Positions 25,633 to 29,411 of a DNA stretch of 31,860 bases are shown in pieces. Numbering within the stretch: the stretch's first letter is position 1; the number at the start of each line of letters is the position of its first letter. The notes under the pieces are model-generated. The model made no database searches and was not told the DNA's origin. It worked only from the letters and a program-made list of their open reading frames with translations. The position numbers and the translations under genes are program-made. This DNA is from a virus (taxonomy: Duplodnaviria; Heunggongvirae; Uroviricota; Caudoviricetes). The DNA is taken from the IMG/VR virus record IMGVR_UViG_2778261226_000007. The stretch is one strand, 5' to 3'.

Positions 25633-25765
25633 AGCAAAACACCAATATTAACTTGATAACACAAGAATACATCAAGATTAAATTAACATGCAAGTTGCAA
25701 AAGGATCGAATACACTAAAATCAAGTAAAGATTTATCCTTGTAAAGAAACCCACAGGACCTGGTC
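25633..25765. promoter_or_regulatory. Divergent PR/PRM-type promoter-operator region
   Basis: AT-rich intergenic region with repeated CTTGAT/ATCAAG half-sites (25652-25657, 25671-25676, 25720-25725). Exact promoters not resolved. Confidence 0.55.
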
Positions 25766-26455
25766 ATGAAGAACGTCAAAAACACGGAAAATCGAATAGC
25801 CGCGATGCTGAAAGCAAAAGGATGGACTCAGGCTCAACTGGCCCGCAAGTTAGGTGTGAGTGCGCAATCAGTGCAGTACTGGACAACAGGAAAGACATTT
25901 CCACGGAGTGATAAGCTTGCGCAGTTATCAGAGATTAGCGGTTATCCACAATCCTGGTTCTTAGGTGAAGACCCCTCACCGACCTTCTCCTCGCCAGAGA
26001 AACACCAGACAAGAACAGATAGCGTCGTGTTTAATGTCCTTGATGTTGAGTTCAGTTGCGGTGATGGAACTCATGTCCGTGGTGACTTGATAGATGTAGT
26101 GCGCTCAATAGAACTTGATCCTGAATATGCCCGACGTCTTGTTGGAAATCGGGCATTCAAAAATATAGAAATAGGTAACGCCAGAGGAGACAGTATGGCT
26201 CCCACAATCTCACCTGGCGACCTTCTTTTTCTCGATAAGACAGTAACTTATTTTGATGGAGATGGCATTTATGCATTTTGTTTTGATGGAGAATGCTACG
26301 TGAAAAGACTTCAAAAAATTGGAAGCAAAATCATGGTGTTATCTGATAACCCCAATTATCAACCATGGAGCATCGAAAAAGAGGGTTTAGCTCTGCTTTA
26401 TATCCAGTCTAAAGTGATCTCATCTGTACCATTCAATATAAACAGATTTGGTTAG
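25766..26455 (+). CDS. CI-type prophage repressor (HTH plus S24/LexA-like autocleavage domain)
   Basis: N-terminal HTH WTQAQLARKLGVSAQSVQYWTTGK. C-terminal GDSMAPTISPGDLLFLD...YVKRL supplies the Ser/Lys dyad context. Confidence 0.9.
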   Translation: MKNVKNTENRIAAMLKAKGWTQAQLARKLGVSAQSVQYWTTGKTFPRSDKLAQLSEISGYPQSWFLGEDPSPTFSSPEKHQTRTDSVVFNVLDVEFSCGDGTHVRGDLIDVVRSIELDPEYARRLVGNRAFKNIEIGNARGDSMAPTISPGDLLFLDKTVTYFDGDGIYAFCFDGECYVKRLQKIGSKIMVLSDNPNYQPWSIEKEGLALLYIQSKVISSVPFNINRFG

Positions 26456-26467
26456 TCTTTGATTTTA

Positions 26468-26488
26468 ACGGGCTTTGCCCGTTTTTTT
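26468..26488 (+). terminator. Intrinsic terminator after the repressor gene
   Basis: ACGGGC, loop TTT, GCCCGT, followed by T6. Confidence 0.75.
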
Positions 26489-26518
26489 CTGCCTAAAATA
26501 CACGATATCAATTTTTTC

Positions 26519-26547
26519 TTGACAGCCTATTTCGCAAAGCATAATAT
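26519..26547 (+). promoter_or_regulatory. Near-consensus sigma70 promoter (pL equivalent)
   Basis: TTGACA, 17 nt, TAATAT. It is followed at 26554-26570 by the 17-bp near-palindrome ATCAACTATAACTTGAT, which shares half-sites with the cro/cI control region. Confidence 0.75.
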
Positions 26548-26600
26548 CGCGCCATCAACTATAACTTGATTTGATTCAATTTAAAATTGTTGGTGGGTAT

Positions 26601-27053
26601 ATGAAGACACTAAACGCAACTCCAGAAACAACTAATTTTATCAACTGCGGCTGTGTTACGCTTGAAGGCTTAGAACTTGATTCCTTTGCATTAAATATTG
26701 CAAATTTGCTAAGTGCTGTACGCACATTCCATCTTCTTGATTGTGCTCGCTCAAAGGAACTAGGCATTGAGGTAATGGAATTTATCCATGAATATGCTCT
26801 ATCTGCGGCTTCTCCTGCACGACAAAAACAATCCTTCCCTAAAAGCTGGCTGGTTAACCTTCACACCCAACGCGAAGCCTGCGGCTTAACAACCGCCGAA
26901 CTCGCCAGGCTGCTCGATCTCGATGAAGAAATCATCATCCAGTGGGAGAGCGGAGAGTATGAACCAACTATCAGTATGCTTATCCCACTGGCAAATATTC
27001 TTGGCTGCGATCCGATGTGGTTATTGACTGGTAGCAATGCTACAAAGGAGTAA
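26601..27053 (+). CDS. Two-domain protein: unknown N-terminal domain plus C-terminal XRE-type HTH
   Basis: ATG at 26601 with GGTGGG upstream. HTH is LTTAELARLLDLDEEIIIQWESGEYEPTISMLIPLANILGCDPMWLL. Confidence 0.7.
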   Translation: MKTLNATPETTNFINCGCVTLEGLELDSFALNIANLLSAVRTFHLLDCARSKELGIEVMEFIHEYALSAASPARQKQSFPKSWLVNLHTQREACGLTTAELARLLDLDEEIIIQWESGEYEPTISMLIPLANILGCDPMWLLTGSNATKE

Positions 27054-27058
27054 CAGCA

Positions 27059-27259
27059 GTGAATAGTAATATCCATGACAATTTCGAAGGTATTTGTCTG
27101 GCATCGGATTCATTTGCAATAAACATTCATAGTCTGTTGTGCGCTGCGCAAGTTTTACAGATGTCAAATAATCAGAATGCAAAAACATTAGGTGATGAAA
27201 TCCTGTCTTTTGCATGTGAATATTCGAAAGCTGCAGTCAAAAAAGAATTAGCGCAATAA
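27059..27259 (+). CDS. Stand-alone paralogue of the N-terminal domain of 26601..27053
   Basis: GTG start with AAGGAG 8 nt upstream. DSFAINIHSLLCAAQVLQM...LGDEILSFACEYSKAA aligns with DSFALNIANLLSAVRTFHLL...LGIEVMEFIHEYALSA. Confidence 0.6.
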   Translation: MNSNIHDNFEGICLASDSFAINIHSLLCAAQVLQMSNNQNAKTLGDEILSFACEYSKAAVKKELAQ

Positions 27260-27337: not shown

Positions 27338-27451
27338 ATGACTTTCCTGAAACATAAGGCATCGTATAAAACTGCCTGCCTCATTGCACAACATGGAGAT
27401 TCTTATCTTCATATAGCCAACCTGTATTTGCGCAAAGCATATGGGAGATAA
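27338..27451 (+). CDS. 37-aa ORF (not in track)
   Basis: My translation is MTFLKHKASYKTACLIAQHGDSYLHIANLYLRKAYGR. AGGAGA lies 7 nt upstream. It ends 4 nt before the next start. Confidence 0.3.
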   Translation: MTFLKHKASYKTACLIAQHGDSYLHIANLYLRKAYGR

Positions 27452-27644: not shown

Positions 27645-28222
27645 ATCATTCAGATTTCCGACCAGAAGTTACGCCACATGGCATAAAAATTGGCAATACA
27701 ACCATTAATTTTGTTGATGCCGTACAGCGACTTAATGATGGTGAATACGACAATCCATACTGGCACGGCTTAAGAATCATGCAATGTATTGCTGAAGCCG
27801 ATGATGCAGGGTTGCTGGGACGATTTTCAGTCGATATGAAGGTTGCTCAGTGGCGATGGCTGTATGTGACTACGTTTATAAATGAAGAGAAAGACAAGAA
27901 CGGTACCGTTGATATCCCTAACGATAACGGAACTACAGATCACGCGGTTATTTACAAGGGCAAACATGGTTGCCTGAGTATCTACCCCGGACCACTTCGT
28001 ATTGCCCTGCAAAACCACGTCGAATGGGGATTTATTGAAAAATATGGCGAAGCTGAAGGCATGGGGCGAGTTCTGTTTCTCTATCAAAAAATGCTCATCG
28101 CAGATCCTGATAATGGTTTCATTATTTCTGCTATGGGGCGCGAAGGGCTTGAACTCCTTCTGGATGAAATGATGAACGACCTGAATACTCATGGTATGCC
28201 AGAAGCGCCAGTGACACATTAA
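27641..28222 (+). CDS. Hypothetical protein
   Basis: Start at MNHSDF with AAGGAG upstream. 193 aa. No family recognised. Confidence 0.6.
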   Translation: MNHSDFRPEVTPHGIKIGNTTINFVDAVQRLNDGEYDNPYWHGLRIMQCIAEADDAGLLGRFSVDMKVAQWRWLYVTTFINEEKDKNGTVDIPNDNGTTDHAVIYKGKHGCLSIYPGPLRIALQNHVEWGFIEKYGEAEGMGRVLFLYQKMLIADPDNGFIISAMGREGLELLLDEMMNDLNTHGMPEAPVTH

Positions 28223-28398: not shown

Positions 28399-28587
28399 AT
28401 GAGACTGTATTTCACAATAGTAATTTTACTGGCAATTATCGCATGCATTTACGGATTACTCGTTCCGTTCCTTATATCCATGAAGGATACGATAGCAGTT
28501 ATTTCTGGCTTTGCACTGGCGTTTCTGACCCCGCCCTGCATTTATGCCATTTACAAGGGTCTTTCTTTCACTAAGGATAAAAGATGA
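28399..28587 (+). CDS. 62-aa 2-TM membrane protein, coupled to the SPFH gene
   Basis: Two hydrophobic segments. The stop overlaps the SPFH ATG (ATGA). Confidence 0.55.
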   Translation: MRLYFTIVILLAIIACIYGLLVPFLISMKDTIAVISGFALAFLTPPCIYAIYKGLSFTKDKR

Positions 28588-29411
28588 AAAAAATTATTTT
28601 TGCTTTAGCCATTGTTCTGCCGACTATTGGCCTTGTCGGTTGCGATCGCGTTGAACCAGGTAATGTTGGCATCAAGGTAAATAAACTGGGCGACGACAAA
28701 GGCGTCGGTGAGGTGGTCGGTGTTGGTCGCTACTGGACTGGCTGGAATACTGAAGTTTATATCTTCCCCACCTTCAAACAAATGAAGACCTACGATGAAC
28801 CGTTCAGTTTCCAGATGAGTGACGGTACAACCATCGGCTATCACATTGGCGTGGCCTACAAAGTTGATCCATCCAAAGTTACCACGGTGTTTCAGACCTA
28901 CCGCAAAGGCGTGGATGACATTACCGACACTGACCTGCGCCAGAAGATCGCCGACGCACTCAACCGACTGGCCAGCAAAATGACCACTGACAAATTTATC
29001 GACGGCGGCAAGTCTGAGCTGCTGGATGAAGCTCTTAAAGACATTCAGGCAGAGATGACACCTATCGGTATTCAGGTAATGAGCCTCTCATATGTGGGTA
29101 AGCCGGAGTACCCGCCAACCGTTATCGACAGCATTAATGCCAAAGTCACGGCAAACCAGAAAACCCTGCAGCGCGAGCAGGAAGTCAAGCAACGTGAAGC
29201 GGAGGCCAACATGCTACGTGCGGAAGCTGCCGGACAGGCTGATGCCATTCGAACAAAAGCCCAGGCAGAAGCCGATGCCATTCGTTTACGCGGCGAAGCT
29301 CTACGCCAGAACCCAGGCGTCATGGAGCTGGAAGCCATCAACAAGTGGAACGGTACACTGCCGCAATACATGACCAGTGGTGCCAATACACCATTTATCC
29401 AGATTAAATAA
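28584..29411 (+). CDS. SPFH/band-7 (prohibitin/HflKC-like) domain lipoprotein
   Basis: Signal peptide MKKIIFALAIVLPTIGLVGC with a lipobox and Asp at +2. The SPFH-like core is followed by an Ala/Glu/Gln/Arg-rich coiled coil (QREAEANMLRAEAAGQADAIRTKAQAEADAIRLRGEA). AAGGA SD. Confidence 0.8.
   Translation: MKKIIFALAIVLPTIGLVGCDRVEPGNVGIKVNKLGDDKGVGEVVGVGRYWTGWNTEVYIFPTFKQMKTYDEPFSFQMSDGTTIGYHIGVAYKVDPSKVTTVFQTYRKGVDDITDTDLRQKIADALNRLASKMTTDKFIDGGKSELLDEALKDIQAEMTPIGIQVMSLSYVGKPEYPPTVIDSINAKVTANQKTLQREQEVKQREAEANMLRAEAAGQADAIRTKAQAEADAIRLRGEALRQNPGVMELEAINKWNGTLPQYMTSGANTPFIQIK

Follow-up and report, generated by a model that had tools for sequence, protein, structure and literature searches.

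Small proteins that disarm an XRE-type regulator have been described in two systems with which the genes studied here invite comparison. In the biofilm switch of Bacillus subtilis, SinI binds SinR through surfaces conserved between both proteins, and formation of the heterodimer abolishes DNA binding (PMC3163267). In the arbitrium phages of Bacillus, AimC is an XRE/SinR-like repressor whose oligomerisation domain is bound by AimX, a small helical phage protein that blocks both oligomerisation and DNA binding (bioRxiv 10.1101/2025.11.23.689978). A literature search found no study of the two genes that concern us and returned only these analogies.

Here, we analyse two adjacent genes, A and B, within a stretch of 31,860 nt (IMG/VR record IMGVR_UViG_2778261226_000007) that we call the window. 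Gene A encodes an XRE-type helix-turn-helix (HTH) protein and gene B a stand-alone relative of its N-terminal domain, which recalls the SinI/SinR arrangement of an XRE regulator with a small helical domain next to a small domain-only homologue. The homology of the small protein to the non-HTH domain of the adjacent regulator is found here too (38% identity, E=7e-9, genes 5 nt apart). There are also clear differences. The SinR domain lies C-terminal to the HTH, whereas in A the shared domain (residues 20-70) is N-terminal and the HTH (residues 89-141) C-terminal; the small gene of the prophage is downstream of the regulator gene, not upstream, and the setting is a phage pL operon. In addition, neither B nor residues 1-85 of A matched Pfam SinI at E<=0.1, and B-type genes are not tied to regulators with the matching module (see below). 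With AimX/AimC, the two genes may share the design of a small helical protein set against the association domain of an XRE regulator, but AimX is not described as a paralogue of AimC's domain (bioRxiv 10.1101/2025.11.23.689978). Moreover, the part of main lysogeny repressor falls to AimC, but A is an additional regulator of the early operon and follows a LexA-like CI; host clade and sequences differ as well.

Two further comparisons concern the position of the genes and their surroundings. The likeness to lambda N is one of map position only, namely the first gene after a CI-controlled leftward promoter: A is an XRE HTH protein and B a 66-aa helical mini-domain, neither matched the N-family in Pfam and PHROGs, and nothing points to RNA binding or antitermination. 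Anti-CRISPR (Acr-Aca) loci also combine a strong early promoter with variable small proteins that adjoin a conserved HTH or form one protein with it, and HTH-inhibitor fusions such as AcrIIA1 exist among anti-CRISPRs. In our case, by contrast, the free-standing genes are conserved and not variable, the promoter carries predicted CI-type operators and PADLOC gave no anti-defence match. The closest relatives are found in the phages themselves, since A and B are members or close relatives of phiP27 L10/L08 and of phrog_4836, phrog_4739, phrog_4587 and phrog_5451. These proteins and families are annotated only as hypothetical, 'CII-like' or HTH proteins, without experimental function. To our knowledge, the relation of the free-standing proteins to the N-terminal modules of the regulators is not recorded in these PHROG libraries, and we know of nothing on early regulation in the phiP27-like group beyond CI and Cro.

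Results

Genes A and B head the pL-like operon of a phiP27-like prophage

The window is an E. coli prophage, phiP27-like and integrated beside yecE/yecN; a queried 741-bp stretch was 99.9% identical to the chromosome of E. coli UR21/11-869, where int, DUF72 (yecE), yecN and cmoA are annotated in the flanks. Opposite cI, the minus strand carries a YdaS/Cro-like gene and an ORF6N-KilAC antirepressor-like gene. The transcript of cI ends at an intrinsic-terminator-like hairpin (coordinates of all features are given in Table 1), which recurs in 31 related loci, and behind it lies a predicted promoter flanked by operator-like palindromes. The palindromic motif, ATCAA-N7-TTGAT, has seven matches in the window against 1.7 expected, a count reached in none of 100 shuffles. 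The four sites around cI, of which two lie between cI and cro, probably serve as CI/Cro operators for this immunity type, and terminator, promoter and palindromes together read as a pL/OL arrangement. Because the cI terminator and a promoter with operator-like flanks precede them, A and B appear as the first pL genes, and the sequence-only reading, which had placed them where lambda has N, was right in this respect. No terminator was predicted between the promoter and position 27700, so that a single transcript probably spans A, B and the genes behind them.

Other genes of the same region deserve mention. Downstream of B, the window contains a conserved 37-aa ORF (MTFLKHKASYKTACLIAQHGDSYLHIANLYLRKAYGR) with a GCAGGAG Shine-Dalgarno (SD) sequence 8 nt upstream; it is also found in phiP27, in L007 and L013 of our set of loci and in the phages EKP1 and Fraca, and PhiR49_2 has an annotated 37-aa CDS at the equivalent position. 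Farther downstream, the operon encodes a lipoprotein of the SPFH/Band_7 type (Pfam 3e-31; phrog_200), weakly similar to HflK/HflC in NCBIfam, below the cut-off; lambda CII/CIII are under the control of the protease FtsH, which HflKC modulates. Two phiP27-type loci have an ORF of 80-82 aa (MRMKNCDAYHICLIGELLDC...) that overlaps the end of the regulator gene, matches none of the N-terminal module types described below and is without family assignment.

Table 1. Features of the cI-pL region and of related loci. Positions refer to the window unless a locus label precedes them.
Feature	Position	Strand	Basis or remark
ATCAA-N7-TTGAT sites, cI/cro intergenic region	25641-25657, 25720-25736		same motif as at the pL flanks
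S24-peptidase CI repressor	25766-26455	+	Peptidase_S24 and HTH_3 (Pfam)
Intrinsic-terminator-like hairpin and T-run, end of cI transcript	26467-26483	+	7-bp stem with 5 GC pairs, then TTTTTCT
Operator-like palindromes ATCAA-N7-TTGAT	26507-26523, 26554-26570	+	flank the pL-like promoter (unit 26507-26570)
pL-like promoter TTGACA-17-TAATAT	26519-26547	+	predicted, sigma-70 type
Gene A, 150 aa, ATG start	26601-27053	+	RefSeq WP_088167437.1, identical boundaries; phrog_4836
T1 module of A, residues 20-70	26658-26810	+	domain HMM E=1e-23; BLASTP against B
20-bp palindrome within A	26685-26704	+	on the codons of SFALNIAN
XRE-type HTH of A, residues 89-141	26865-27023	+	Pfam HTH_3 (PF01381), 1.3e-10
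AAGGAG ribosome-binding site of B	27045-27050	+	within the final codons of A, read from the sequence
Gene B, 66 aa, GTG start	27059-27259	+	RefSeq WP_001087593.1, identical boundaries; phrog_4587
T1 domain of B, residues 6-59	27074-27235	+	domain-only HMM; BLASTP against A
Conserved 37-aa ORF	27338-27451	+	GCAGGAG upstream
SPFH/Band_7 lipoprotein	28584-29411	+	Pfam; phrog_200
80-82-aa ORF overlapping the regulator gene end	L002 4195-4443; L007 3908-4150	+	phiP27-type loci
'ADIVI.G..VKNR' module protein	L002 4782-5147		phiP27 L08
Free T6 copies	L012 4101-4292, 4880-5074; L129 2689-2916; L130 2683-3108		E=1e-15 to 1e-19 against the N-regions of P0065/P0083/P0053

The N-terminal domain of A and the product of B belong to one domain family

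In protein A, a linker joins an alpha-hairpin module to an XRE HTH, and the protein matches phrog_4836 over its full length (E=9.9e-77). HTH_3 scored 41.6 bits, above its cut-off of 23, and residues 1-85 had no match in Pfam, in agreement with the initial description of a 150-aa product with an unrecognised N-terminal domain and an XRE-type HTH. The nearest solved relatives, the HTH domains of P22 C2 and of the 434 repressor and an MBF1-like protein, correspond by sequence to the HTH part only. A DicA-type repressor (NCBIfam NF007257) was considered for A and discarded, the match being restricted to the HTH part and scoring 36.8 bits against a cut-off of 101. With respect to the DNA that A might recognise, a search for conserved palindromes gave nothing above chance. 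A 20-bp palindrome (TTTGCATTAAATATTGCAAA) coincides with the codons of A's conserved SFALNIAN motif (within DSFALNIAN); 20-bp palindromes of this kind occur at chance level and B has no equivalent.

Gene B, which matches phrog_4587 over its full length (E=4.3e-31) and has no match in Pfam, begins 5 nt after the TAA of A (27051-27053), with 8 nt between AAGGAG and its GTG. Both the GTG start and the strong AAGGAG described in the sequence-only reading are confirmed, and RefSeq draws the boundaries of both genes in the same way. Judged from this layout, A and B are probably translationally coupled. BLASTP aligned A 20-69 with B 8-59, with 20 of 52 residues identical (38%) and 60% positives (E=7e-9 as a single pairwise comparison), and the two proteins also found each other's families in PHROG (A to phrog_4587, 3.9e-7; B to phrog_4836, 1.2e-3). 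The relationship estimated by eye, a paralogue of the N-terminal domain only with roughly one third identity, is thus borne out, and the DSFA.NI..LL.A core that had been singled out is present in both proteins and extends to K.LG.E and F..EY. A recent tandem duplication of A and B was rejected, with protein identity at 38% and B nearer to the N-module of another regulator, P0022, than to that of A.

We name the domain of about 55 aa that is common to A's N-terminus and B T1. Its consensus, taken from a local HMM that covers the domain alone (55 positions), is F.GL.L.pDSFA.NI..LL.A...L..S....K.LG.E.L.FA.EYA.AA, and an alignment of homologues of both classes shows SFA.NI..L..A, K.LG.E and F..EY as invariant. 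This HMM recognises 42 of the 120 proteins collected from two big protein libraries; the profile used for the library search had 119 positions including HTH columns, and many of its matches came through the HTH only, so that the T1 subset was defined with the domain-only HMM. T1 stands alone in proteins of 60-88 aa, forms the C-terminal part of 121-aa proteins like phiP27 L08 and precedes one, two or three HTH in others. No family was found for it in Pfam, NCBIfam or PADLOC, where A gave only generic HTH matches and B none, and no specific structural neighbour was found among solved or predicted folds.

The structure prediction of the shared domain for which the sequence-only reading called gave a confident model. 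From an alignment of 41 sequences, AF2 modelled B with pLDDT 91.8 and pTM 0.77 as a beta-hairpin (residues 8-13) and two helices (16-34 and 39-65), that is, a short beta-hairpin followed by an alpha-hairpin. As a single sequence, A was modelled with pLDDT 48, its N-domain not being resolved, and helices at about 29-45 and 52-69 were predicted with low confidence. The alpha-hairpin is a fold common in self-association and in the dimerisation of helical bundles. Helix 1 of T1 bears large hydrophobic residues on two opposite faces, as expected if more than helix 2 packs against it. On the other hand, since B is modelled confidently as a monomer, the mini-domain may be self-contained, and the conserved polar residues N22, Y55 and D/S17-18, grouped near one end of the hairpin, could form a specific site for a ligand or partner instead of a dimer interface.

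Is B a gene at all? Its shortness and its GTG start would suit a chance similarity or an ORF that is not a real gene. Against this stand the pairwise E value of 7e-9 with reciprocal PHROG matches, the strong SD, the RefSeq annotation, the confident model and the marks of purifying selection. The median dN/dS of free-standing T1 domains was 0.17 (531 pairs, 56 unique B-type domain DNAs), and that of the regulator N-modules was 0.10 (47 pairs). Such a reading is effectively refuted, and T1 is a real, folded and selected domain that has so far gone uncatalogued.

Free T1 genes accompany regulators with any N-terminal module

How the two forms of T1 are distributed was examined in a set of related loci. 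A degenerate DNA pattern built on CDPMWLLTG, a motif conserved in the HTH, gathered 113 IMG/VR stretches, which, with annotated phage loci and contigs encoding homologues, made 127 loci with one family regulator each. The regions before the first HTH, from these loci and from database homologues, comprised 117 unique sequences, which clustering divided into 19 types. The most frequent is T1 (62 of 117); T2 is the type of phiP27 L10, which has A's HTH at 95% identity but this other N-module, and the remaining types are smaller groups, all of similar length. Read from their sequences, the types other than T1 are helical in appearance. Profile-profile comparison hinted that T1 and T2 may be related (probability 65%, P=6e-5) and detected no relation between T1 and T3-T8.

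Free T1 was sought within 1.5 kb downstream of the regulator in the 83 distinct loci whose sequence continued for 900 bp or more beyond it. It was found in 80 of them, that is, beside 47 of 49 T1 regulators and 33 of 34 others, the latter carrying T2, T3, T4, T8 or no assignable module (Fisher p=1.0). As the loci were collected through CDPMWLLTG and are related by descent, the near-universal presence of free T1 could reflect synteny, not selection. Given that T1 is the commonest N-module and that free T1 is nearly always present, the pairing seen in the window is what independent assortment would lead one to expect. No free-standing copies of T2 or T3 were found beside T2 or T3 regulators.

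Sequence divergence within each class points the same way. Free T1 genes have a median identity of 70% among themselves and the T1 modules of regulators 26%. In loci with both, the B-type protein has a median identity of 38% to the module of its own partner and of 31% to those of non-partners, and the best match of B among regulator N-modules is P0022, not A. The regulator is of the T1 type in Stx2_14744 and of the T2 type in Stx1_499, yet the B genes behind the two are nearly identical and the 5-nt junction is the same. The combination of a T1 regulator with free T1 recurs in Stx2_14744, PhiR49_2 and ASU11.

Free modules also occur where the regulator is missing. A T1 consensus detected free T1 genes by tblastn in the phages EKP1, Fraca and SaltyDalty, and in these genomes tblastn with A's HTH found no family HTH at E<=1e-5. 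Directly after cI, EKP1 has the array T1, T1, T6 and Fraca the array T1, T6, with no family regulator in the locus. T6 is thus a second N-type that exists free-standing, as genes of 63-76 aa in the same operons, which adjoin T1, T2 or T3 regulators in several IMG/VR loci or belong to phages without a family regulator; they match regulator N-modules at E=1e-17 to 1e-19. The record OM284015.1 ('Elizabethkingia phage EKP1', L129 in Table 1) has an immunity/pL region strongly like those of E. coli lambdoid prophages, on account of which its host label looks doubtful; its T1 modules match Enterobacterales proteins at 1e-22 to 1e-24.

T1, T10 and HTH modules occur in several orders, and phiP27 L08 carries T1 at the C-terminus behind a 60-aa N-extension. 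A module of about 50 aa, 'F(E/K)(N/G)ITV.H...ADIVI.G..VKNR' (phiP27 L08, P0056, P0066 and P0025), is a third shuffled one: it makes up the N-extension of the 121-aa T1 proteins, serves as N-module in regulators with two HTH and, in a protein with three, lies between HTH domains. The HTH-coding DNA (window 26860-27030 compared with loci L002 to L006) retains 78-97% nucleotide identity where cI differs and the N-modules differ too. This conserved DNA may act as a recombination joint between the cI-proximal side, with its N-module and immunity genes, and the downstream pL genes.

Discussion

What might such a pair do at the head of the pL operon? The sequence-only reading proposed that an HTH protein beside a truncated paralogue is an anti-regulator pair. 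If so, B would heterodimerise specifically with A's N-domain and yield HTH-deficient complexes, a dominant-negative switch that times A. That an HTH protein lies beside a stand-alone paralogue of its N-domain has held up, and identity over the whole module with a common conserved core, adjacency with a 5-nt gap and B's SD inside A, a fold typical of helical-bundle dimerisation, the precedents of SinI/SinR (PMC3163267) and AimX/AimC (bioRxiv 10.1101/2025.11.23.689978) and the recurrence of the arrangement in three further phages would all suit it. The claim of a dedicated pair has not, because free T1 is equally frequent beside unrelated N-modules (33/34 against 47/49, p=1), B resembles its own partner no more than it does non-partners, near-identical B genes follow T1 and T2 regulators, and free T1 exists in phages without the regulator; moreover, the lack of free T2 or T3 beside T2 or T3 regulators implies that the design is not general to the regulator family. 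We regard the dedicated pair as doubtful. The arrays of two or three free modules in EKP1 and Fraca, which have no regulator of their own, would be explained if free modules (T1, T6 and possibly others) acted in trans as decoys that poison the regulators of competing resident or superinfecting prophages through HTH-deficient mixed oligomers, with the unrelated N-module types as escape variants of a phage-phage arms race. Each of these free modules is similar, at 1e-19 to 1e-24, to the regulator N-module of some other phage. Even so, we consider this idea improbable.

On another reading, the small modules would be effectors that inhibit functions of the host or of competitors, such as defence systems or proteins of other prophages, and the HTH an Aca-like damper of a strong early promoter, sometimes fused to an effector; B would then be another stand-alone effector. 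The contrast between a conserved HTH and hypervariable, replaceable N-modules (19 types; 26% identity within T1), the arrays of two or three different small modules at the operon start, with or without an HTH, and known fusions of the AcrIIA1 kind speak for such a scheme. The conservation of free T1 (70%) and its strong purifying selection are unlike typical arms-race effectors, though, and there is neither a match in PADLOC, Pfam or NCBIfam beyond generic HTH nor a candidate target, while the promoter already bears predicted CI-type operators. It therefore seems unlikely. With mosaicism alone, a short deletion that kept the reading frame would have joined T1 to an HTH gene, and A's N-module and B would since act independently on different things. 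The packing of pL genes with gaps of 0-5 nt or overlaps implies that fusion is easy, and both the varied order of T1, T10 and HTH and the presence of B whatever the N-type of the regulator agree with it. Yet 62 unique T1-HTH variants with dN/dS of 0.10 imply a function for the fused module within the regulator, the residues kept in both free and fused T1 (F.GL.L, DSFA.NI and EYA.AA) suggest a shared molecular activity, and recurrent fusion predicts a functional link. We hold mosaicism alone to be rather improbable.

The reading to which we lean, tentatively and short of an even chance, is that A and B are products of a shuffled family of association modules that heads the pL operon of phiP27-like prophages. 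T1 would be a module that exists either free, as B and its relatives, or fused before one to three XRE HTH, as in A and its relatives. In A, we infer that T1 most likely serves as the association (dimerisation) module that an XRE HTH needs for DNA binding, a role that fits the filling of the same regulator position by many unrelated helical modules of similar size. Any helical dimeriser would serve the regulator, and replacement by unrelated types and rapid drift would follow. B would be the conserved free-standing T1 gene of the operon, with the same fold and a conserved role of its own, made from A's pL transcript early after infection or induction, probably by translational coupling. It is not a dedicated partner of A, as it is kept at equal frequency whatever the N-module of the regulator.

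Nevertheless, where the regulator bears T1, B may co-assemble with it and lower its avidity for DNA, in the manner of SinI on SinR. T1, the 'ADIVI.G..VKNR' module and the HTH have been fused repeatedly and in several orders, which on Rosetta-stone reasoning argues for a common system in which they work and keeps the idea of cross-association between A and B alive.

Read from the sequence, A and B present the design of an XRE regulator with a domain-only paralogue, built on an undescribed domain and with a small gene that is not a dedicated partner. Both the family of this uncatalogued domain of about 55 aa and its shuffling are new. The pair opens the early-left operon, and the prophage group concerned counts phiP27 and several Stx1- and Stx2-converting phages of pathogenic E. 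coli among its members; the regulator family appears as a set of interchangeable N-modules on a conserved HTH, at least two of which also circulate as free genes. If the modules associate, they would add a SinI/SinR-like layer of control to lambdoid phages and might allow cross-talk among co-resident prophages, which would affect induction and the biology of Shiga-toxin phages. If they do not, the locus would be a clean case of shuffling that mimics a regulator with its truncated partner, and a caution for genome mining.
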